Assembly (NCBI GenBank): GCA_943354835.1
Contig: CALRDH010000001.1
Coordinates: 255,298 to 319,297 of the forward strand
DNA length: 64,000 nucleotides
Direction of reading: 5' to 3'
Origin: a candidate division WWE3 bacterium
GTDB taxonomy: Bacteria; Patescibacteriota; WWE3; 2-01-FULL-39-13
Shown: piece by piece, positions 5,175-51,244 of the stretch
Numbering within the stretch: the first letter of the stretch is position 1
How the letters are laid out: each line of letters starts with the position of its first letter
Notes under the pieces: generated by a model
The model's database searches: none
Told to the model about the DNA's origin: nothing
The model's input: the letters and a program-made list of their open reading frames with translations, nothing else
Program-made: the position numbers and the translations under genes

Positions 5175-5971
5175 GATTTCGATTTAATAAGTTCAAGTCC
5201 GCCGATGATTCCATTTTCTTCACCAAGTTGTGAAATTTCTATACTAGGGTAGCTTTTGAAAGGTTCAAGTGAAGCTAACGTATCCTTTGTTTTTTGAAGA
5301 AAAAGTTGAGATTTTTTTGATAAACTTCCGCCTATAACTATAATATCGGGGCGCCATAGAAGAATAATATTGTGAAGGCCGAATCCAAGGTTTTTACCGA
5401 ATTCTGACCAAATATTTTCGTCATTATATTCTTCAGGCGAGACGCCATATCTTTTTCTGAAAGCAGTTCCAGAACATAGATTTTCAAATGTTTCATTTGT
5501 AGTGTAATTCAAAACGTGATGTCCCGGTTCAAAATTAAATATAGTGTCGGGGATTTTTTTGTTTACAATGATTGAACCTCCAACTCCTGTGCTGATTGTT
5601 ATATACGCGACTCTTGAATAGGTTTTGCCGGCTCCGTGAGTTGCTTCTGCAAGGCTTGCTAAAGCTGCGTCATTCTCTATATATATAGATTTATATTTTG
5701 TGTCTGAAACAATTTCTTCGACGAGTCGGTTATTAAGAAATCCTGCGTGAGGTGAATAGTAAATTCGTTTTTCAACTCTATTTACAAACCCGGCAGCTCC
5801 GATTGATATTGCTTCATACGAAGTATTTGATTCAAGGACGCCTTTGATTTTTGATTGAAGTTCATTGAATGTTTTTGGCGTAGGGAACTTTTGTATATCA
5901 AAAAATTGATTTAAATCTTTTGAAAGTCCTATTTTAGTTTTTGTTCCACCGATGTCTATTGATGCGTACAT
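5171..5971 (-). CDS. Sugar kinase of the ASKHA superfamily (ROK/glucokinase-like or BadF-type)
   Basis: N-terminal phosphate-1 motif SIDIGGTKTKIGL. Size and adenosine motif VIGGS. Confidence 0.65.
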   Translation of the reverse strand: MYASIDIGGTKTKIGLSKDLNQFFDIQKFPTPKTFNELQSKIKGVLESNTSYEAISIGAAGFVNRVEKRIYYSPHAGFLNNRLVEEIVSDTKYKSIYIENDAALASLAEATHGAGKTYSRVAYITISTGVGGSIIVNKKIPDTIFNFEPGHHVLNYTTNETFENLCSGTAFRKRYGVSPEEYNDENIWSEFGKNLGFGLHNIILLWRPDIIVIGGSLSKKSQLFLQKTKDTLASLEPFKSYPSIEISQLGEENGIIGGLELIKSKS

Positions 5972-38490: not shown

Positions 38491-39588
38491 ATGAAAAAAT
38501 CAAAAGGAAAAGTTTATTTAGGATTAAGCGGTGGTGTCGACAGCTCTGTTTCTGCAGATATTCTTAAAAAACAAGGGTATGACGTGGCCTGTGTATACAT
38601 GAAATGTTGGGACGAAGGCCCCGGCTGCTCTACTAAGCAGGATGTGTCAGACGCAGTCAAGGTAGCGTCCTCTTTAGGATTGCAATTTCAGGAATGGGAT
38701 TTTGTACAAGACTACAAATCCAACGTACTTGATTCATTTATACAATCTTACAAGTCTGGTTTAACTCCAAATCCAGATGTTCTTTGCAATTCTGAAATAA
38801 AATTTGGATCATTTTATAAGCGTGTTAAGAGTATTGATCCTGAGGCATTTGTAGCTACTGGCCATTATGTAAGAACTTTATCTTTAGATGGTCGTAAATA
38901 TTTAGCATCGGGTTTAGATCTTAGTAAAGACCAATCATATTTTCTTTATCGTATTTCTACTTCGTTTGACATTATAAATAGCTGTTTATTTCCAATTGGA
39001 GAGATGAAAAAAGTCGACGTTCGCCGTTACGCAAAGAATATTGGTTTACCAAACATGAGCCGTCCTGATAGCCAAGGTTTGTGCTTTATTGGAGATGTAA
39101 ATATGCGTCAATTCTTAAGTACCTATATAGATAAGACAAACGGACCAGTTGTCAGAGTGGGCGGAGAATTGATCGGGGAGCACATGGGGCTTTCATTCTA
39201 TACGATCGGACAAAGACATGGTTTTTCGCTGTCTGGATATCATGGTGAACCATTGTATGTAATAGGCAAATTGCCACAAAGTAACACTCTAATAGTTGGC
39301 GGTCGTGAAGAAGCGTATTTTGATGAAGTCCATGTTTCGGAGCTTTTGTTTATTGAAAAGTTCAAAGATTTAGATTTATCTGTTCGTGTTAGGAACTTGG
39401 GTAAGAATATTCCATGTTCCGTGACTTTTGATCTCGATGGAAAAAATGAATGTGATGTGAAATTGAAGTTTTCTGAATTCGGAATTGCTCCTGGTCAAAG
39501 TGTTGTTTTTTACCATAAAGATATTGTCGTCGGAGGAGGAATTGTTACAAAGTCAGGTTCCTCAAAAATTCCCCAAACTACTACTTGA
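38491..39588 (+). CDS. mnmA: tRNA-specific 2-thiouridylase
   Basis: PP-loop LGLSGGVDSSV, catalytic Cys regions, C-terminal beta-barrel. Confidence 0.85.
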   Translation: MKKSKGKVYLGLSGGVDSSVSADILKKQGYDVACVYMKCWDEGPGCSTKQDVSDAVKVASSLGLQFQEWDFVQDYKSNVLDSFIQSYKSGLTPNPDVLCNSEIKFGSFYKRVKSIDPEAFVATGHYVRTLSLDGRKYLASGLDLSKDQSYFLYRISTSFDIINSCLFPIGEMKKVDVRRYAKNIGLPNMSRPDSQGLCFIGDVNMRQFLSTYIDKTNGPVVRVGGELIGEHMGLSFYTIGQRHGFSLSGYHGEPLYVIGKLPQSNTLIVGGREEAYFDEVHVSELLFIEKFKDLDLSVRVRNLGKNIPCSVTFDLDGKNECDVKLKFSEFGIAPGQSVVFYHKDIVVGGGIVTKSGSSKIPQTTT

Positions 39589-39637: not shown

Positions 39638-40285
39638 ATGGCCAGAAAAGAGAGTAACAAAAATACCCAAAAGGTAAGCTTCCCAGAACTATTCCAGTTT
39701 ACAGTGATAGAGATGTTCAGTCCTAAATCTGATAAGTCCCTTATTGATTATAATTCGTTAAAGCTGATAAATACTAAAGAATTAGCATTTTTGAATAAAT
39801 CACAGCTTCGTTTTTTTGTTGAATATATTGGTGCTTTCTTTATAACGATTAACTTATCTGTTTTAGCTATGTTGTTTTTGGTTGACTTTAATGGCGTAAA
39901 AAGCGTAGCTCCAAGACAGGTTGCACAGGCATCTGCACCAGTTACAATCGTTGCTGCAACTCCTGCTTCCGCTTCGAATGTTTTAGGAATCAATTCTGAT
40001 TCAAATTCTTTTGGACTCGATAGTTGTTCATTTTCAGTAAACGATGTTATGTATTCATCCCAATCAGAAGTAAGTCTTCGTGGTTTGAAAACTTTATGCG
40101 TTAATCATTCCGTTAAAAATGGGTCCGTTTTGTGGCAGGTCAACATGAAAGATGGTGAGAATCTTGTAATGAAAGGCGATTGTGTGAGTTTTGGAAATCC
40201 ATCAATTGTCAAAAGTATTGAAACTTATATTATAGATTCTTCAAACATTAATAGTGCGTCGTGTGAGTTAGGTTTTTCAAAGTAA
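39638..40285 (+). CDS. Hypothetical secreted/membrane-anchored protein
   Basis: TM segment at ~aa 55-80. No other motif. Confidence 0.35.
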   Translation: MARKESNKNTQKVSFPELFQFTVIEMFSPKSDKSLIDYNSLKLINTKELAFLNKSQLRFFVEYIGAFFITINLSVLAMLFLVDFNGVKSVAPRQVAQASAPVTIVAATPASASNVLGINSDSNSFGLDSCSFSVNDVMYSSQSEVSLRGLKTLCVNHSVKNGSVLWQVNMKDGENLVMKGDCVSFGNPSIVKSIETYIIDSSNINSASCELGFSK

Positions 40286-40420
40286 TCATGACAATAAAGC
40301 TTTATTTATACATATTTTCTTCAGTATTCTTATTTGTATTCTCTCTACTCTCAATCCCATATGCGATTTCGGCGAACGTCGTTTCCATCGCCTCTGCAAA
40401 TACTGATGTGAATATGTGCA

Positions 40421-40450
40421 TTGACCAACGCCTGTAATTATTGTTAGAAT
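40421..40450 (+). promoter_or_regulatory. rRNA promoter candidate (TTGACC, 18 nt, TAGAAT)
   Basis: Near-consensus hexamers ~90 nt upstream of the 16S 5' end. Confidence 0.5.
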
Positions 40451-40537
40451 GGCGCAGTCACAAATTTAGTAGCACTTTAACAATTTAAGAGTCAGCAATA
40501 TATATCGGTTTTTGAATGGTGAAAAGAATTTTATTTA

Positions 40538-41990
<1,453 letters not shown>

Positions 41991-42167
41991 AAGGAGATTA
42001 AAAGGAAGGTTTAAAAGCTTTCCAAACTTACGAGAAGCTTAGTCGGCTTTCGTATTTTACAAGGAAAATTTCTCACGATCTTTTCTAGACAGCTTAACAA
42101 CAAGAGGCTTAAAAGTTGTAGACGAGTTCTTTTCACCGCTTAGAGACTGATATATTGCAAAATCCAA

Positions 42168-42193
42168 AAAGAGTCCGAAAAGGCTCTTTTTTT
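42168..42193 (+). terminator. Rho-independent terminator-like hairpin downstream of 16S (AAAGAGUC-CGAAAA-GGCUCUUU plus U-run)
   Basis: 8-bp stem followed by TTTTTTT. Confidence 0.5.
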
Positions 42194-42217
42194 AGTTTTT
42201 GATGTACTGTTTTCGCA

Positions 42218-42745
42218 ATGACTGATTCAAATAAATCAATTAAAATTCCAAAGCTCACAAGATTCCATCAATTATTAGATAAAGCACTTGAACCAGTAAT
42301 GGTGGTATTAGGAGGATTTGATGGCGATTCTCTACAGGAAACCCACGTGTGGCATACAATAAGAATGGACCCGAGTCTTATTGATCTTGATCTTACCGTT
42401 GAGGTTCCTGGATCGGTAAGTGCTAGAGATTATAAAAATAGGTTTGATCCTCGTTTTCATATTCCAGCTATTGATGGTTGGGGTTGGAATGACTATGTTG
42501 TGCTCGCTCCAAAGTTAGAAAATCTAGAGCCTTGGCATATAGGTTGGCATAAAGTTAGAGATAATGAGCTTTTTTTATGTAAATTACATTTAAAACCAGT
42601 TGAAGATTATGCTCTCAAGTTATTAAAAGGGCCCAATAACAGTTCTTTTTTTGCATTCACAAGCGGTGGCAGTCAGATTCCATTAAAATTCCTTGATGAA
42701 GGTCGACATGGTGATAAAAAATATTCAAAATTAAGATTGTTTTAA
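42218..42745 (+). CDS. Hypothetical 175-aa protein encoded in the 16S to tRNA-Ile spacer
   Basis: Clean ORF with ATG. No LAGLIDADG/GIY-YIG/HNH motif and no recognisable family. Confidence 0.45.
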   Translation: MTDSNKSIKIPKLTRFHQLLDKALEPVMVVLGGFDGDSLQETHVWHTIRMDPSLIDLDLTVEVPGSVSARDYKNRFDPRFHIPAIDGWGWNDYVVLAPKLENLEPWHIGWHKVRDNELFLCKLHLKPVEDYALKLLKGPNNSSFFAFTSGGSQIPLKFLDEGRHGDKKYSKLRLF

Positions 42746-42784
42746 TTTTGGTATAATTTCAACGTTCGGTTTGTTAGTACTTCT

Positions 42785-42861
42785 CGGGCGATTAGCTCAG
42801 GTGGTTAGAGCGCTAATCTGATAAGTTAGAGGTCCATGGTTCGAGTCCATGATCGCCCACC
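42785..42861 (+). tRNA. tRNA-Ile (anticodon GAU)
   Basis: Manual cloverleaf: acceptor GGGCGAU/AUCGCCC, anticodon loop CUGAUAA, T-loop UUCGAGU, encoded CCA. Confidence 0.85.
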
Positions 42862-42876
42862 AGTTATACTCCGTAT

Positions 42877-43449
42877 ATGAAAGTTCAAAAGAGATTTTTT
42901 AAATATTGTTTTGTATTCCTTTTAGTGTTCTTTCTTGTAAACATTTTCGCAATTGTTCTTTTTGGACATTTTGATAGGGTTCGGAATGCAGATGTAATAA
43001 TTGTTTTGGGAAATAAGGTTGAGATGGATGGGAAACCTTCTGAAAGGCTTATGTCGCGTCTTGATAAGGCTTTAGAACTTTATAATTCTGGATATTCGTC
43101 CAATATCTTTGTTAGCGGAGGCCTTGGCAAAGAGGGTTATGAAGAAGTCGAAGTTATGGAGCAATTTCTTTTAGAAAATGGAGTTCAAAAGTTACATATC
43201 CATAAAGATTATCTTGGTTTTGACACAGAGCAATCAGGTTTAAATTTAAAATCCTATATGGATGAATTTGGTTATAAATCGGTTATTGTTGTTTCGAATT
43301 TCTATCATATTCCAAGGTCTGTAATGTTCTTCAAAAAGCTTGGAATTAAAGACACCTATAATTCTCATGCAAATTATTATGAGATTAGGGATGCTTATTC
43401 TTTGGTCAGGGAAGTTTTTGCTTTTTATGATTACTTGGTGTTAAGATAA
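42877..43449 (+). CDS. DUF218 (YdcF/SanA/ElyC-like) domain protein
   Basis: N-terminal TM plus DUF218 core DVIIVLGNKVEMDGKPSERLMSRLDKALELY…FVSGG. Confidence 0.65.
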   Translation: MKVQKRFFKYCFVFLLVFFLVNIFAIVLFGHFDRVRNADVIIVLGNKVEMDGKPSERLMSRLDKALELYNSGYSSNIFVSGGLGKEGYEEVEVMEQFLLENGVQKLHIHKDYLGFDTEQSGLNLKSYMDEFGYKSVIVVSNFYHIPRSVMFFKKLGIKDTYNSHANYYEIRDAYSLVREVFAFYDYLVLR

Positions 43450-44052
43450 TTGTTCTATTATCTCTATATGAAAATCGCAAAATCCAATATCTCCGAAATT
43501 TCAGATGCTCTCCTTTCTGGTTCCGTCGGCATTATGCCTAGCGATACTGTTTATGGTTTGTTTGCAATGGCTATGAATTCCAAGTCTGTTGAAAGGATTT
43601 ATTCGATTAAGAAGCGTGATTTGGATAAGCCTTTTATTGTTTTGATTTCTGATATTTCCGATTTGGAGCTGTTTGGAATTAAAGCGTTTGATTATCAGTC
43701 TAGGTTTGTAAATAAATATTGGCCTGGACCTTTAAGCTTGATTTTTGACTGTAAAAATCCGGAATTCGAATATCTCCATCGTGGAACAAATTCTTTAGCT
43801 ATAAGAATGCCTAAAGATGACTGGTTGTTAAATATTCTTCGTAAAACCGGTCCGCTTGTCGCGCCATCTGCAAATCTTCAAGATTCTCCGACAGTAAAAA
43901 ATATAGGTGAGGCGATTGAGATTTTTGATGATGCTGTCGATTTTTATGTTGATGGTGGAGAAATCGTCGGCGAGCCTTCTACTTTAGCAAAATTCAATGG
44001 AGACAAACTTGAGATATTAAGACTTGGGCAGTTAAAAATCGAATATCCTTGA
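43450..44052 (+). CDS. tsaC: L-threonylcarbamoyladenylate synthase (YrdC/Sua5 family)
   Basis: YrdC motifs …MPSDTVYGL…, KKRD.DKPFIVL. Confidence 0.75.
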   Translation: MFYYLYMKIAKSNISEISDALLSGSVGIMPSDTVYGLFAMAMNSKSVERIYSIKKRDLDKPFIVLISDISDLELFGIKAFDYQSRFVNKYWPGPLSLIFDCKNPEFEYLHRGTNSLAIRMPKDDWLLNILRKTGPLVAPSANLQDSPTVKNIGEAIEIFDDAVDFYVDGGEIVGEPSTLAKFNGDKLEILRLGQLKIEYP

Positions 44053-44064
44053 TACAATTGCACT

Positions 44065-44670
44065 ATGATTTCCCTTTCTAAATCCAAAGAGCTTCACTTA
44101 AAAAAACTAGCAAGTCTTGTCGAAGAAAAATCTAAAGTTGTAAACATCACAGCCATTCGTGATTTTGATGGTATTTGGGAAAAGCATGTTTTAGATTCTT
44201 TGGAGTTTTTGAATACAGAGTTTTTTAAAACGCATACTAATGAGAAGTTTACTTATATGGACTTTGGAACTGGGGCTGGATTTCCTGGGCTTCCTTTGGC
44301 CATAATGCTTCCTGATTCAAAGTTTTCACTTGTAGATGGAACTAGAAAGAAAGTTGAAATCGTTAATGCGTTTGCAAATGAATTAGGTTTAAGTAATGTT
44401 CAAACAATTTGGTCAAGAGCAGAAGACCTTGATCGTAAGTTTGAAATTGTATTGGCAAGGGCAGTGAAATATTTGCCTGAACTTTTAAAAACTGCTGTTG
44501 AATTTGTTTCTAAAGATGGGTACATCGTTGCATACAAAATGTTAAATGATGAAGAAATAAAAGCCGGAGACGACGTTTGTGGGGAGATTTCACTTGTTAA
44601 GGTTGAAGAATATAGATATTCGTTAAGCGGTCAAGATCGTGTGATTTTGATATACCAGAAAAAATCCTAG
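44065..44670 (+). CDS. rsmG: 16S rRNA (guanine527-N7)-methyltransferase
   Basis: GidB/RsmG motifs DFGTGAGFPGLPLAI, SLVDGTRKKVE. Confidence 0.8.
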   Translation: MISLSKSKELHLKKLASLVEEKSKVVNITAIRDFDGIWEKHVLDSLEFLNTEFFKTHTNEKFTYMDFGTGAGFPGLPLAIMLPDSKFSLVDGTRKKVEIVNAFANELGLSNVQTIWSRAEDLDRKFEIVLARAVKYLPELLKTAVEFVSKDGYIVAYKMLNDEEIKAGDDVCGEISLVKVEEYRYSLSGQDRVILIYQKKS

Positions 44671-44689
44671 AAATGATAGAATCGGTTTA

Positions 44690-45706
44690 ATGCCTGTAAT
44701 TGATAAATATCTTTCATATATTTTCGAAAATGGATTTAGTGATCTTCATATTATTCCGGATGTTCATATAATCGGCCGGATTGATGGTGATTTGGTAAAA
44801 ATATCAGAAGATAAATATACCAATGCGGATTTGGAAAAGGTTTTATTTGAAATTATTCCGCAAGGCGATAAAGATTATCTTAACAAACACTTTAATCTAG
44901 ATTTTTCATATGAGGTTCCAGGTGTTTCAAGGTACAGGGCAAATTATTATTGGCATAATGGTGGAATCGGCGCGACTTTTAGAGTAATTCCTAAAAAAAT
45001 ACCAACAATATCAGAACTTGGTTTATCAGAGGCTTCGCTTAGAACAACTCAATTTAAAAACGGCTTAGTTTTAATAACAGGACCGACTGGTTCAGGAAAA
45101 ACTTCTACAATGGCTGCGCTTTTAAATTACATAAACATAAATAGACCTGCTCACATTATTACGATCGAAGATCCAATTGAATTTGTTCACCAAAATGACA
45201 AATTAGGTCTGGTCAGTCAAAGAGAACTTGGAAAGCACACAAAAAGCTTTTCAAGCGCGCTAAGAGCAGCCTTAAGAGAAGATCCAAACGTAATAATGAT
45301 TGGCGAAATGCGAGATATGGAAACAATAGAGTTGGCTATCACAGCAGCTGAAACCGGACATTTAGTTTTTGCATCGCTTCATACTAATTCAGTTGCAAAA
45401 ACCGTTGATCGTTTAGTCGATGTATTTCCAAACGAAAGCAAAGGCGAAGTTAGGGCTTTGCTTGCTGATACGTTAAGAGCAGTTTTATCTCAAACACTTG
45501 TTAAACGTGCAGATGGAAAAGGCAGAATTCCAGTTCAAGAGATTATGTTTGTAAATCATGCAATTTCAAATTTAATTAGGGAAGGTAAATCTTTCCAAAT
45601 CGATGATGTTATACAAACAAGTATGAAAGACGGAATGCTTTTAATGTCTAATGAAATGCAAAGATTAACAAAAGAAGGCAAGATCGGCGTAGAAAAAATA
45701 GCTTAA
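44690..45706 (+). CDS. pilT: Type IV pilus retraction ATPase
   Basis: Walker A GPTGSGKTST, Asp box EDPIEF, Walker B/His box IGEMRDMETI…ETGHLVFASLHTNS. Confidence 0.8.
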   Translation: MPVIDKYLSYIFENGFSDLHIIPDVHIIGRIDGDLVKISEDKYTNADLEKVLFEIIPQGDKDYLNKHFNLDFSYEVPGVSRYRANYYWHNGGIGATFRVIPKKIPTISELGLSEASLRTTQFKNGLVLITGPTGSGKTSTMAALLNYININRPAHIITIEDPIEFVHQNDKLGLVSQRELGKHTKSFSSALRAALREDPNVIMIGEMRDMETIELAITAAETGHLVFASLHTNSVAKTVDRLVDVFPNESKGEVRALLADTLRAVLSQTLVKRADGKGRIPVQEIMFVNHAISNLIREGKSFQIDDVIQTSMKDGMLLMSNEMQRLTKEGKIGVEKIA

Positions 45707-45710
45707 CCTT

Positions 45711-46601
45711 TTAATTTATTTTTGATTTAAGATACTCTTTGAATTTCTGATTATATTCTGGATTTTCGAGCGCTAAGTCTATTGATGTTTGAAGATAATT
45801 GATAGGATCTCCAGTAGTTTTCCATTCTCCGCTTATTGGTTTTACGAGTACTGTTTTTTCTTTTGCCATTCTGTGGATAGCATCTACCATCCAAAGCTCA
45901 CTATCTTTTCCAAGATTTGATGGCGTCGGTTCTAGGTAATTGAAGATTTCTGGTCGTAAAAGATATCCGCTAAAGCTAACTAGGCTTGAAGGGGATTCTT
46001 CTTTTGATGGTTTTTCGATTATGTAATCAAGAACATTTTCAGTTCCTTCTTTTATTTTGATCATTCCATATTTTGTCACGTCGATATTTGGAAGATCTTG
46101 TGCTGGGATTACGCCGTATACATCATCACCGCTGTTTTCGTAGACTTCTATCATTTCTGTTACTCGGGATTTTCCGAAAACCAAATCGTCTGTGTAAATA
46201 TAAACGAATGGTTCGTTTCCAATGTATGGTCTTGCAGAAATTGCAGGTGAGCCATTTCCATATGGAAGATTATTATCTTGTGTAATGACGATTATATTTG
46301 GAAGGCTGAATACTTGGCTAACTTTTCTAAATCTTTCTTCTTTTCCTTGCTTTTGAAGCTGTTGGTAAATATGTTGAACTGTATTGTGAAAATAATCTTC
46401 ATAAATGGATTGTCCTTCTTTTGTTGCGACAATTATGATTTCAGTTATTCCTGCGACCATGCATTCTTCGACAATATAATGCGTAATCGGTTTATCTAAA
46501 ATCGGAATCATTGACTTTGGAAGAGTTTTTGTAATAGGCAAGAATCTTGTTGCGTAACCTGCGTCTGTTAAAACAGCTTTTCTGACTTTTTGTTTTTCCA
46601 T
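45711..46601 (-). CDS. galU: UTP--glucose-1-phosphate uridylyltransferase
   Basis: N-terminal KAVLTDAGYATRFLPITKTLPKSMIPI and sugar-binding region. Confidence 0.8.
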   Translation of the reverse strand: MEKQKVRKAVLTDAGYATRFLPITKTLPKSMIPILDKPITHYIVEECMVAGITEIIIVATKEGQSIYEDYFHNTVQHIYQQLQKQGKEERFRKVSQVFSLPNIIVITQDNNLPYGNGSPAISARPYIGNEPFVYIYTDDLVFGKSRVTEMIEVYENSGDDVYGVIPAQDLPNIDVTKYGMIKIKEGTENVLDYIIEKPSKEESPSSLVSFSGYLLRPEIFNYLEPTPSNLGKDSELWMVDAIHRMAKEKTVLVKPISGEWKTTGDPINYLQTSIDLALENPEYNQKFKEYLKSKIN

Positions 46602-46795
46602 TGAGTCGAAATATACAGCGAACTTTATACTGGTGTCAATTAGTTGGAAAATAGTTGATGCTGTCTATTGTAAATTCGTTTTTGCTGTAGTATATTTTCG
46701 TCCATACAGTTAACGTTGTTGATCAACCTCTTAACATTCCGTATTATATATATCGTAAGGCCAAGAAAGGCTTTAGAAAAAGCCGGCAGAATTTT

Positions 46796-46871
46796 GGGCC
46801 GGTAGCTCAGCTGGTAGAGCGCTACATTTGCAATGTAGAGGTCATGGGTTCGAATCCCATTCGGTCCACCA
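46796..46871 (+). tRNA. tRNA-Ala (anticodon UGC)
   Basis: Manual cloverleaf with diagnostic G3:U70 pair, anticodon loop UUUGCAA, encoded CCA. Confidence 0.9.
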
Positions 46872-46977
46872 GTTTGTAAATCATGGCTTACGATAAGCGG
46901 ATTTTCGCTCTTTAACAACTGAATAGATTATTTAAAGGGGCAGCCACCTTAAAAGGGCTACCCCGATATTGTAAAAA

Positions 46978-49890
<2,913 letters not shown>

Positions 49891-49986
49891 TCTTTTTTAC
49901 AAATAATCTATTCAGCATTTAGAGAGAGAATGGGCGATGGGACGAGGCTCTATAGCCTTCGCCCCATCACTATCTAATGAGTATAA

Positions 49987-50104
49987 TGCTGGTGATTCTA
50001 GCGACGTGGAACAACCTCTTCCCATTCCGAACAGAGTCGTTAAACGCGTCAGCGGCGAAAATAGTGTTTTGGCAACGAAATGCGAAGATAGCTCGTCGCC
50101 AGCA
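49987..50104 (+). rRNA. rrf: 5S ribosomal RNA
   Basis: Helix I UGCUGGUGA/UCGCCAGCA closes the molecule. Loop motif CCCAUUCCGAACAGAGUCGUUAAACGC. Confidence 0.8.
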
Positions 50105-50146: not shown

Positions 50147-51244
50147 ATGTCAGAAGTTCCCACAAATAATTTATCGGATTTAATTAAAAAGCATTCAAAG
50201 CAAGTTAAGGTTTTTTCAACAGGCGCTGTAATCGAAGGCGTTATTGTTTCAATAGATAAGAAATATGTTTTAGTCGATGTCGGAGCAAAATCTGAAGGAA
50301 TGATTCCAACAGAAGAACTCAAACTCTTGCCTGATAGAGATGTTAAAGTTGGAGACAAAATAACATCTATTGTTGTACAGCCAGAAAATAGACAAGGTAA
50401 TTTAATCCTTTCACTTAAAAAAGCTAAATCTCAACATAATTGGTCATCCTTAGATGTCGTTTTCGAATCTGGAGAACCAATTGAAGTTACAATTATTGAT
50501 TACTTAAAAGGTGGTTTAATTGTTGATACAAACGGGCAACGAGGTTTTGTTCCAATTAGTCATCTAAATCGCGTTCATTTTGAGCAATTCAATATTGCAA
50601 TGGCTGAAGGTACAAGTTCTGACTCTGCACAAAATCTTGGTGGTTTAAAAGGTACGACAATGCAGGTAAAGATTATAGAAATTAATGCAGAAAAAAATAG
50701 ACTCGTAATGTCAGAAAAAGAAGTAATGTCAAAGGAAGAGGCAGCTTCAAAAGATAGAAGATTAGCTGAAGTAAAAGAAGGCGACGTTATAGATGGAACT
50801 GTTTCGACTGTACTTCCATATGGCGTATTAGTTGATTTAGGCGGAATAGACGGTCTTGTACATATTTCAGAAATTGCATGGGAAAAAGTTTCAGCTCCAA
50901 AAGATTATTATAAACCAGGAGATTCTATTAAGGTTAAGATTATTGGAAAAGATGAAGACAAAATAGCTTTATCAGTAAAAGAACTTAAAGATAATCCATG
51001 GAATAAAGTAGAAGAAAGATATCCTTTAGGCAAACGCGTAAAAGCAACTGTTTCTAAAGTCGTACCATTTGGAGCGTTTATCGAACTTGAACCAGGACTT
51101 GATGGACTTATTCATATATCAGAGACTGTTGGTCCATTAAATGTTGGTGATGAAGTAGAGGCTGTTGTCGTTAATGTTGATTCTAAAGATCGTAAACTTG
51201 CCTTAAGCATAAGACAGATCGAAGATTCAAAAATCTACAGATAA
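50147..51244 (+). CDS. rpsA: 30S ribosomal protein S1 (four S1 domains)
   Basis: Repeated S1 OB-fold motifs (G.V.G.V…G.G.LVH.SE…). Start set at ATG 50147; ORF-track 49937 start would overlap 5S. Confidence 0.8.
   Translation: MSEVPTNNLSDLIKKHSKQVKVFSTGAVIEGVIVSIDKKYVLVDVGAKSEGMIPTEELKLLPDRDVKVGDKITSIVVQPENRQGNLILSLKKAKSQHNWSSLDVVFESGEPIEVTIIDYLKGGLIVDTNGQRGFVPISHLNRVHFEQFNIAMAEGTSSDSAQNLGGLKGTTMQVKIIEINAEKNRLVMSEKEVMSKEEAASKDRRLAEVKEGDVIDGTVSTVLPYGVLVDLGGIDGLVHISEIAWEKVSAPKDYYKPGDSIKVKIIGKDEDKIALSVKELKDNPWNKVEERYPLGKRVKATVSKVVPFGAFIELEPGLDGLIHISETVGPLNVGDEVEAVVVNVDSKDRKLALSIRQIEDSKIYR

Follow-up and report, generated by a model that had tools for sequence, protein, structure and literature searches.

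A conserved gene of an uncurated protein family beside the 16S rRNA gene of a split rRNA locus

How a protein-coding frame comes to lie between a 16S rRNA gene and tRNA-Ile, and what its product might do there, is the question raised by the 64,000-nucleotide stretch of DNA analyzed here (the window). An earlier note described this frame, ORF175, as an orphan resident in the rRNA spacer (ITS) behind a terminator-like hairpin, and offered as explanations a mobile-element remnant, an rRNA maturation factor or a novel family. The reading favored here, to which a probability of roughly three in four can be given, is that ORF175 is a vertically inherited gene of an uncurated family, placed by rRNA genes that are split into separate units.

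The argument begins with the frame itself.

42218..42745, plus strand: ORF175, member of a conserved uncharacterized family of ~170 aa (ORF call, homologues, codon score, model)

ORF175 opens with an ATG 229 nt past the 3' end of the 16S gene, encodes 175 aa and ends exactly 40 nt ahead of tRNA-Ile, just as first reported. The description as an orphan, however, was wrong. An exhaustive search returned at least 268 homologous clusters (50% identity) at E <= 1e-3, with 87 at E <= 1e-10, and nearly all of the clustered relatives are full-length at 160-210 aa. Codon usage is native and frame-specific: ORF175 scores +0.25 bits per codon when read in its own frame, as compared with 0.29 +/- 0.05 for the long genes of the genome, and falls to -0.70 and -1.21 when read in the two alternative frames; its GC content is 35.6% as compared with 36.2% for the window. 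Comparison with a 97%-identical relative gives a dN of 0.012 and a dS of 0.057, with synonymous changes in excess. The identical protein is annotated on a 429,718-bp NCBI contig and in other assemblies, and no paralogue was found in the window. ORF175 is a real, conserved gene, native to the genome, and the claim that it is a genuine protein gene is upheld by its many homologous clusters and its frame-specific codon score. That it should instead be a chance open frame in a non-coding spacer might be argued from the lack of a Shine-Dalgarno sequence and of any match to a curated family, but a Shine-Dalgarno sequence is also missing from most genes in the window, and a chance frame would have to account for conserved motifs shared by the homologous clusters, coding potential specific to one frame, the synonymous excess and a high-confidence predicted fold. 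The set of homologues refutes this reading, the probability of which is next to nil.

The gene's address also requires revision. The gap between 16S and 23S measures 4983 nt (41989 to 46973) and contains six protein genes, one of them on the minus strand. The ITS of a linked rrn operon contains tRNA genes and processing signals alone, all on a single strand, and the published classification limits it to 1500 bp, the mean being ~420 bp; rRNA genes are unlinked where more than 1500 bp separate the nearest 16S and 23S (Brewer et al.), a condition common in Patescibacteria. Because 4983 nt exceeds 1500 bp, the rRNA genes here are unlinked by the published definition; the gap lies far above the linked range and holds protein genes, including one on the opposite strand, so that "ITS-resident" does not describe ORF175. 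Its position beside 16S is best explained by the splitting of the rRNA genes into separate units and not by residence in an rRNA spacer. The rest of the gap and the 23S unit comprise the following features.

42786..42862, plus strand: tRNA-Ile (GAT) (ARAGORN, Rfam)
42877..43449, plus strand: DUF218 (YdcF-like) gene (Pfam PF02698, E = 1.3e-24), with TATACT at -12
43450..44052, plus strand: Sua5/YrdC (TsaC-type) gene (Pfam PF01300, E = 3.5e-44)
44065..44670, plus strand: RsmG/GidB 16S rRNA methyltransferase gene (Pfam PF02527, E = 2.5e-35)
44690..45706, plus strand: PilT-like type II/IV secretion ATPase gene (Pfam PF00437, E = 1.6e-46)
45711..46601, minus strand: nucleotidyl-transferase gene (Pfam PF00483, E = 6.7e-25)
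46796..46871, plus strand: tRNA-Ala (TGC), first gene of the 23S-5S unit (ARAGORN, Rfam)
46907..46918, plus strand: boxA-like motif GCTCTTTAACAA in the 23S leader (direct repeat D11)
46973..50104, plus strand: 23S rRNA (46973-49900) and 5S rRNA (49988-50104) (Rfam)

Any co-transcription from 16S to 23S is interrupted by the minus-strand nucleotidyl-transferase gene, by which a minus-strand promoter-like site is found at 46639-46610 (11/12 matches in a consensus scan). Beyond this opposite-strand gene, tRNA-Ala, 23S and 5S would form a separate unit; the same type of scan places plus-strand promoter-like sites ahead of tRNA-Ala at 46668-46696 and 46719-46747, and 23S has a leader-trailer pairing of its own (46920-46934 with 49900-49914).

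Two known arrangements help to place this organization. The Saccharibacterium Nanosynbacter lyticus TM7x is reported to have pyrD and a gene for a hypothetical protein in its 16S-23S gap. The two loci are alike in that protein-coding DNA parts 16S from 23S by more than 1500 bp and that 23S and 5S remain together, and the organisms are of the same phylum type. They differ in the content of the gap, which here consists of ORF175 and the DUF218, YrdC, RsmG, PilT-like and nucleotidyl-transferase genes in place of pyrD and the hypothetical gene, and in that tRNA-Ile and tRNA-Ala are retained in the gap described here, one at each end. The E. coli-type rrn operon runs from a promoter through boxA, RNase III stems, 16S, tRNA-Ile/Ala, boxA, 23S and 5S to terminators. 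Shared with this plan are boxA-like motifs ahead of both 16S and 23S, a leader-trailer stem enclosing each large rRNA, and tRNA-Ile(GAT) and tRNA-Ala(TGC) between 16S and 23S. Departures from it are the terminator-like hairpin directly 3' of the 16S trailer stem, the six protein genes, one antisense, among the tRNAs and rRNAs, and the separate promoter-like elements before ORF175, tRNA-Ile and tRNA-Ala.

The unit immediately upstream of ORF175 is organized as follows.

40421..40450, plus strand: candidate sigma-70-type promoter of the 16S unit (TTGACC, 18-nt spacer, TAGAAT, TG ahead of the -10; 10/12 matches in a consensus scan), putative in function
40472..40483, plus strand: boxA-like antitermination motif GCACTTTAACAA in the 16S leader (direct repeat D11 with the 23S-leader copy)
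40494..40532, plus strand: leader half of the 16S processing stem, pairing with 42123-42159
40531..41989, plus strand: 16S rRNA gene (Rfam RF00177, 1347 bits, model positions 1-1533)
42123..42159, plus strand: trailer half of the 16S processing stem, including TTCTTTTCACCGCTTAGA (folding and repeat finding)
42166..42199, plus strand: intrinsic-terminator-like hairpin AAAAAGAGTC-CGAAAA-GGCTCTTTTT with a seven-T run (consensus scan, folding), a predicted terminator

With its candidate promoter, boxA-like motif and leader-trailer processing stem, and with the hairpin and T-run beyond them, 16S appears to be a self-contained unit. The gene is uninterrupted, with an end-to-end model match over 1459 nt, and the motif in its leader resembles the boxA of E. 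coli rrn (TGCTCTTTAACAA). Leader and trailer pair at -40.2 kcal/mol, as compared with -27.2 +/- 4.3 kcal/mol for shuffled sequences, of which 4 in 500 reach -40.2. The same inverted repeat was recovered by an independent repeat finder as I2 and I4, and the trailer-half block is kept in three relatives, designated L001, L040 and L041.

The hairpin that the earlier note had placed at 42168-42193 was found again within 2 nt, at 42166-42191, as a stem of 10 bp, 3 of them G-C, that closes a loop of 6 nt and leads into TTTTTTTAGTTTTT (consensus scan). Its layout of A-tract, stem and seven T is canonical, and its stem is weak (-9.4 kcal/mol). Terminator-like sites were not enriched in the consensus scan, with 4 found as against 5.2 expected by chance, so that genome-wide enrichment of intrinsic terminators is unusable as support for this one. 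Its credibility comes instead from its setting and its conservation: of the 11 hairpins with a T-run in the whole 64-kb window, 10 lie inside genes and this is the only intergenic site; it stands directly 3' of the 16S processing stem; and it is kept in L001, in which an A-to-G change preserves the stem through a G-U pair although the flanks, the 5' flank included, have diverged. L041 lacks the hairpin, and in L040 none could be clearly made out. A permissive Rfam search of 41950-42900 gave only tRNA, the 16S end and sub-threshold noise. The reading of this element as a terminator is plausible, and it most likely ends the 16S transcript at this point.

Candidate start signals follow the hairpin, one for each of the next two genes.

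42205..42210, plus strand: candidate -10 element TACTGT of ORF175, a weak match beginning 13 nt before the ATG, which would give a near-leaderless mRNA
42749..42757, plus strand: perfect extended -10 element TGGTATAAT, 29 nt before tRNA-Ile and putatively its promoter, as read from the sequence

A leaderless gene is marked by a -10 hexamer ~6-7 nt ahead of its start codon and by the lack of a Shine-Dalgarno sequence. The genes of the window appear typically to start in this way, from a -10 at -12 or -13. A TANNNT hexamer starting at -12 is present in 18 of the 65 genes, as against 1.5 expected, with a TGn extension in 11 of these 18; a further 6 of 65 have the hexamer at -13, and SD-like motifs occur in 8 of 65. 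ORF175, with its weak TACTGT at -13 (the gene-start peak being at -12), shares this habit, and a check for a ribosome-binding site ahead of it, suggested by the earlier note, found no Shine-Dalgarno sequence. In L001, the homologue is preceded by TGaTACAAT, the end of which lies 9 nt from the ATG. The DUF218 gene beyond tRNA-Ile likewise carries a -10 element of its own, the TATACT at -12. The TGGTATAAT element recurs in another relative, L002, and has TGGTATCAT as its counterpart in L041. From these patterns we infer that ORF175 is expressed on its own, from a weak -10 element as an almost leaderless mRNA, and that tRNA-Ile would be started from an extended -10 element of its own.

Because the -10 candidate of ORF175 has neither a correctly spaced TG nor any -35 element, read-through from the strong 16S promoter could also supply its mRNA. 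ORF175 would then have no promoter of its own and would be carried as a passenger on the pre-16S transcript past a leaky hairpin, an arrangement in keeping with the weakness of the stem and of the -10 candidate, with the only 18 nt that separate the T-run from the ATG, with a boxA-like motif in the 16S leader that could favor read-through, and with the truncated homologue of L041, which is fused directly to the trailer without a hairpin. The hairpin is nevertheless canonical in its A-tract, stem and seven T and is kept in L001, ORF175 has the typical -10 position of the window's genes, and in L001 a 1058-aa gene parts the homologue from the hairpin while the homologue carries the TGaTACAAT element of its own. 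Dependence on read-through is on this evidence unlikely, and independent expression of ORF175 remains the preferred reading.

Conservation of position among relatives, for which the earlier note had pointed to the ITS regions of related genomes, holds within one clade and fails outside it. An orthologue occupies the 16S-23S gap in L001, L040, L041/L042 and L048, with protein identities of 38-54% at a 16S identity of ~90%, and is accompanied by RsmG in every member of this clade; in ~14 other lineages, by contrast, the family gene is found at other sites, away from any rRNA gene. Gap content differs from one relative to another. In L041/L042 the orthologue is 5'-truncated, and it is therefore dispensable there. 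Partial copies of tRNA-Ile with a conserved insertion, candidates for either an att-site scar or a structured leader RNA, are a further feature of relatives. In the scheme proposed here, ORF175 would be an ordinary chromosomal gene, inherited vertically.

Introns and homing endonucleases are known from the rRNA genes of CPR bacteria. A derivation of ORF175 from a mobile element or an intron, for example as a degenerate homing endonuclease inserted by the rRNA, could draw on this fact together with the variable gap content and the partial tRNA-Ile copies, and ORF175 does resemble the intron-borne endonuclease genes in being a protein-coding ORF physically tied to an rRNA gene. Unlike them, it lies outside 16S, which is uninterrupted over model positions 1-1533, and not within an insertion; its product lacks any domain of the LAGLIDADG, GIY-YIG, HNH or His-Cys box type; and its family is chromosomal and mostly far from rRNA genes. 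Searches of Pfam, NCBIfam and PHROG gave no endonuclease, integrase or transposase domain, relatives are absent from IMG/VR viral contigs and from PHROGs, and the gene, native in GC content and codon usage, is not flanked by repeats in direct or inverted orientation. The family is also widespread as a chromosomal gene in one or two copies, with synteny kept within the clade. The earlier suggestion of a mobile-element remnant is contradicted by these observations, and foreign origin of either kind is largely refuted and highly improbable.

What kind of protein has been inherited is a separate issue. The family occurs in Saccharimonadales-type (CPR) bacteria, the relatives in species-representative genomes being in Saccharimonadales in 3 of 3 cases, and its named members are all "hypothetical protein." Neither ORF175 nor sets of 15-48 family members matched any model in Pfam, NCBIfam or PHROG, even at permissive E-values, or in PADLOC, and a sequence profile search of the PDB gave 0 matches at E <= 10. 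The statement that the protein lacks an endonuclease motif and falls in no recognized family is upheld by the empty Pfam, NCBIfam and PHROG searches. Since ORF175 is in no curated family, "novel family" is valid in the sense of uncurated hypothetical proteins for which no curated model exists.

Motifs of the family are conserved over 115 aligned sequences. Near-invariant positions are D21, P26, M28, Q40, T42, H43, W45, H81, G89-W90 and Y93, to which can be added G109-W110, F144-F145, G151, Q153, G162 and G165. The AF2 model of ORF175 (pLDDT 89.3, pTM 0.85) places a helix at the N-terminus, ahead of a beta-rich, sandwich-like domain. Foldseek comparison of this model with the PDB and BFVD gave nothing at E <= 0.001, the top matches, which are not significant, having E = 0.037 with a TM of 0.26 in the PDB and E = 0.015 in BFVD. 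The only structural neighbors, and weak ones, are beta-sandwich binding modules, among them the C-terminal domain of Clostridium perfringens enterotoxin, CBM32/35, calpain domain III and the RetS sensor domain. A beta-rich sandwich-like architecture and conserved aromatic residues are common to ORF175 and these modules, but no match to them is significant (best E 0.037, TM 0.26-0.36, identity <= 15%), and ORF175 is set apart by its additional N-terminal helix, by its conserved Q-x-T-H-x-W motif and by the lack of a signal peptide in most members of its family. About 6% of the family are extended at the N-terminus by a predicted signal, transmembrane or lipobox segment, and export of these members is implied.

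Two apparent resemblances were rejected. P0148, a 4145-aa cadherin-repeat adhesin of Marinomonas, is a spurious relative: its repeats each show 26% identity over 57 aa without the invariant residues of the ORF175 family, and its score was inflated by the near-identity of the repeats. A CoaD-like "GxFD...H" resemblance was considered because coaD is commonly found downstream of rsmD, and was dropped since the predicted fold is beta-rich and not Rossmann-like.

ORF175 is, somewhat more probably than otherwise, a soluble cytoplasmic protein in which a cluster of His, Asp, Gln and Trp residues, conserved in the alignment, would bind a small ligand or a metal, its adjacency to 16S reflecting inherited gene order rather than functional coupling. 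An opposite view of that adjacency is also conceivable. CPR bacteria have only about half of the customary set of ribosome biogenesis factors, so that unrecognized ones could exist. The family could on this basis be a lineage-specific factor for maturation or modification of stable RNA or the 30S subunit, with its position by 16S, RsmG and YrdC a sign of functional coupling. Several placements can be read in this way: the orthologues stay in the 16S-23S gap with RsmG in all members of their clade; in a second, abundant clade the family gene and rsmD, which encodes a 16S methyltransferase, overlap at the rsmD stop codon, with a tandem paralogue of the family gene directly downstream; and in the lineage L006 RsgA is encoded two genes upstream of the family member. 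A role in stable-RNA or 30S biogenesis would explain the retention after 16S by rsmG, the fusion to the rsmD operon and a tendency to lie downstream of tRNA genes. In 4 of ~18 independent lineages, the 500 nt upstream of the family gene contain the end of a tRNA or rRNA gene on the same strand, as compared with 16 of 384 background genes (binomial p = 0.006, post hoc). When both sides are counted, a stable-RNA gene lies within 500 nt in 5 of 19 clusters against a background of 9.7%, an excess that is not convincing because the positives come mostly from one clade.

Other observations weigh against such coupling. Across the neighborhoods of ~19 lineages no conserved operon partner was found and the neighbors are mostly unrelated; 30S-related neighbors alone are not significant by a rough estimate; and neither profile nor fold searches detected an RNA-binding fold or motif. 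The export-type extensions of ~6% of members and the truncation in L041/L042 point in the same direction. A link of ORF175 to stable-RNA or 30S biogenesis is thus weakly hinted at, and its position by 16S could be other than neutral, given its retention in the clade and the modest upstream excess of stable-RNA genes, but a biogenesis factor held in place by functional coupling is distinctly unlikely. The more ambitious proposal, in which an undescribed and possibly new-fold family widespread in Saccharibacteria acts on stable RNA or the 30S subunit and offsets the missing CPR biogenesis factors, is a longer shot still.

For annotation, reading ORF175 as a vertically inherited gene beside separate rRNA units removes a false lead, as the gene is neither ITS-borne nor of intron type, and the locus becomes a further example of the split rRNA loci documented in Patescibacteria, with a clear internal layout. 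The family itself is sizeable, with its at least 268 clusters, and combines a confident predicted fold with the lack of both a curated model and a detectable structural neighbor; it is from uncurated families of this sort that an understanding of CPR biology can be built. Should the weak association with stable RNA and 16S methyltransferases hold, the family would be a candidate for an "unknown factor" of CPR ribosome assembly.

ORF175, described in an earlier note as an orphan ORF resident in the ITS between 16S and tRNA-Ile, is a feature correctly seen and over-interpreted. Its start, length and end are as that note gave them, and a terminator-like hairpin lies after the 16S gene at the place described.

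Features of the rRNA locus in the window
40531-41989, 16S rRNA (Rfam, full-length match)
42166-42191, terminator-like hairpin (10-bp stem with three G-C pairs, 6-nt loop, then seven T)
42218-42745, plus strand, ORF175 (ATG start, 175 aa, ending exactly 40 nt before tRNA-Ile)
from 42786, tRNA-Ile (Rfam/tRNA search)
from 46796, tRNA-Ala (Rfam/tRNA search)
46973-49900, 23S rRNA (Rfam)
49988-50104, 5S rRNA (Rfam)

The 16S and 23S genes are separated by 4983 nt containing ORF175, tRNA-Ile, a DUF218 gene, Sua5/YrdC, RsmG, a PilT-like ATPase, a nucleotidyl-transferase gene on the minus strand, and tRNA-Ala. With protein genes on both strands and a distance exceeding the 1500 bp between 16S and 23S used as the criterion for unlinked rRNA genes, this is a split rRNA locus and ORF175 is not ITS-resident. 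The architecture is of an already known kind: unlinked rRNA genes are reported to be common in Patescibacteria, and in the cultivated Saccharibacterium TM7x protein genes (pyrD and one for a hypothetical protein) are also reported to separate 16S from 23S. RNA-modification genes are grouped around the split rRNA genes, with MnmA (38491-39588) before 16S and Sua5/YrdC (TsaC-type, 43450-44052) and RsmG (44065-44670) in the gap. The presence of rsmG here and in the related loci L040 and L041 is unusual because a recent survey finds it in <10% of CPR genomes. Two ORFs without Pfam match, of 215 aa (39638-40285) and 49 aa (40288-40437), immediately precede the 16S promoter region; L041 has similar-sized genes (235 and 51 aa) at the equivalent place before 16S. 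Divergent promoter-like sites fill 46602-46795, and a long ORF directly 3' of 5S (50148-51244) is apparently ribosomal protein S1-like, with repeated S1-type segments in a translation judged by eye.

ORF175 is a genuine gene, and its description as an orphan does not hold. A word-indexed search returned only two relatives (97% and 52% identity); when 1.84 billion cluster representatives were searched exhaustively with HMMER, 268 were recovered (E <= 1e-3), 87 of them at E <= 1e-10. Almost all are 160-210 aa long and align end to end, a homologue set that rules out a chance ORF. In alignments of 48 and 115 members, D21, P26, M28, Q40, T42, H43, W45, H81, G89-W90, Y93, G109-W110, L136, F144-F145, G151, Q153, G162 and G165 are near-invariant. 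Codon usage gives a frame-specific, genome-typical signal (+0.25 bits/codon in frame vs -0.70 and -1.21 out of frame; 0.29 +/- 0.05 for the window's long genes). The 97%-identical relative differs by six synonymous and five non-synonymous changes (dN 0.012, dS 0.057), and an identical protein is annotated on a 429,718-bp NCBI contig and in independent assemblies.

Pfam, NCBIfam and PHROG yield no family match, endonucleases included, consistent with the initial impression of a protein with no homing-endonuclease motif and no recognisable family. Origin as a mobile-element remnant, one of the possibilities first raised, is rejected: besides the lack of such domains, a search of viral contigs gave no relatives, a repeat search found no repeats bracketing the ORF, and its composition is native (GC 35.6% vs 36.2% for the window, with genome-typical codon usage). 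The full-length 16S match, uninterrupted, is a further ground for rejecting an intron or endonuclease origin.

Throughout one clade, ORF175 orthologues are found in the 16S-23S gap, with varied neighbours.

Gene orders in related loci
L001: 16S end, conserved hairpin, 1058-aa ORF, ORF175 homologue
L040: 16S, tRNA-Ile, ORF175 homologue, DHH, RsmG, SpoU, nucleotidyl-transferase (minus strand), tRNA-Ala, 23S
L048: tRNA-Ile, ORF175 homologue, DHH
L041/L042: 16S, trailer fused directly to truncated ORF175 homologue, split RsmG further on

The 1058-aa ORF of L001 (299-3475), with no Pfam match on record, has no counterpart between hairpin and ORF175 in the window. In L041 (5888-6417) and L042 (650-1179), whose 16S is 89.9% identical to that of the window, the first ~57 residues of the homologue are missing, and with them the Q-x-T-H-x-W motif; the hairpin is absent too, and rsmG is in two fragments. 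This arrangement, found on nine contigs, resembles decay of genes within the rRNA gap. Partial copies of tRNA-Ile adjoin the intact gene in relatives and are absent from the window; they represent the 5' half (L002 592-675, L041 10578-10664, L042 about 5340-5428) or the 3' half (L040 721-812). Each is interrupted, in the D loop or T loop, by an insertion of 46-48 nt whose core, GGTAGCCGAAG, is conserved. The insertion has no match in Rfam; possible readings are a scar left by integration, a small mobile insertion and a structured leader. Group I introns of tRNA genes in Patescibacteria are reportedly the subject of a preprint.

Several signals bear on how these genes are expressed. The leader (40494-40532) and trailer (42123-42159) of 16S form a stem of -40.2 kcal/mol, vs -27.2 +/- 4.3 for shuffles, 4/500 of which reach that value; an independent repeat finder also recovered this inverted repeat, and 23S has a separate leader-trailer pairing of its own. 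Directly 3' of the 16S stem is the hairpin (-9.4 kcal/mol). L001 keeps the trailer blocks and the hairpin, with a 16-nt indel in the intervening sequence and a single stem change to a G-U pair. Hairpin and T-run sites show no enrichment over chance in the window, and it is from the shape, position and conservation of the hairpin that we infer that transcription would terminate at 42199. A direct-repeat search found GCACTTTAACAA at 40472-40483 (16S leader) and GCTCTTTAACAA at 46907-46918 (23S leader), which are boxA-like motifs; their occurrence in both leaders suggests that the rRNA antitermination system has been kept despite the split operon.

Of the 65 genes in the window, 18 have a TANNNT that starts exactly at -12 relative to the start codon (about 1.5 expected), 11 of them with a TGn extension, and six more have it at -13; Shine-Dalgarno-like motifs precede only eight of the 65. 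Examples of the -12 type are the starts at 2882, 12563, 14363, 17367, 29229, 35866 (minus strand), 44065 and 44690. As a pattern in sequence, this implies that leaderless mRNAs, transcribed from extended -10 promoters, are probably widespread in the window; a literature search found no description of such starts for Saccharibacteria. ORF175 has TACTGT at -13, a weak match; upstream of its L001 homologue is a TGaTACAAT that ends 9 nt ahead of the start codon. A perfect TGGTATAAT (42749-42757) stands before tRNA-Ile, and the DUF218 gene carries TATACT at -12. Because -10-type elements precede all three genes, they would most likely form a row of small independent transcription units; production of ORF175 mRNA by read-through from the 16S promoter is a possible alternative.

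In other lineages no rRNA gene lies near the homologues, and neighbours differ; an abundant clade, represented by a cluster of 340 sequences, has two tandem paralogues, of which the first overlaps the rsmD stop codon, downstream of recG (L044-L046 7457-9117; also L017, L019, L020, L022, L026 and L027). In 4 of about 18 independent lineages the family gene has a stable-RNA gene on its own strand that ends no more than 500 nt upstream, vs 16/384 other genes (p = 0.006, a post hoc comparison with lineage independence judged by eye). Since roughly half of the ribosome biogenesis factors found in other bacteria are missing from CPR bacteria, a role linked to RNA is conceivable. The evidence for it is weak, and the truncated copy in L041/L042 and the apparently exported family members speak against it; that the family serves stable RNA or the ribosome as a lineage-specific factor is improbable. 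N-terminal hydrophobic segments occur in about 9/157 (~6%) of family members; most, including the window protein, have no signal peptide. The extensions (signal peptide, membrane anchor or lipobox-like) are found in P0150 (lipobox-like LTGC), P0089, P0077, P0090, P0117, P0005, P0038, P0152 and P0097 and suggest that a minority may be exported; the domain may work on both membrane sides, or the start codons of some members may have been called wrongly. A 4145-aa cadherin-repeat adhesin was discarded as an artefact of repeated weak matches.

The AlphaFold2 model (115-sequence alignment), a confident one (pLDDT 89.3, pTM 0.85), predicts a helix (residues 15-31) and, after it, about nine beta-strands. 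Foldseek found nothing significant in the PDB (best E = 0.037, TM 0.26-0.36, generic beta-sandwich modules) or BFVD, and a PDB sequence-profile search gave zero matches. The family is uncurated, with structural neighbours undetectable by these searches, and all named members are "hypothetical protein". All three matches among species-representative genomes are Saccharimonadales MAGs; source contigs of metagenomic members span 28-60% GC, and the host range of the family may therefore extend beyond Saccharimonadales.
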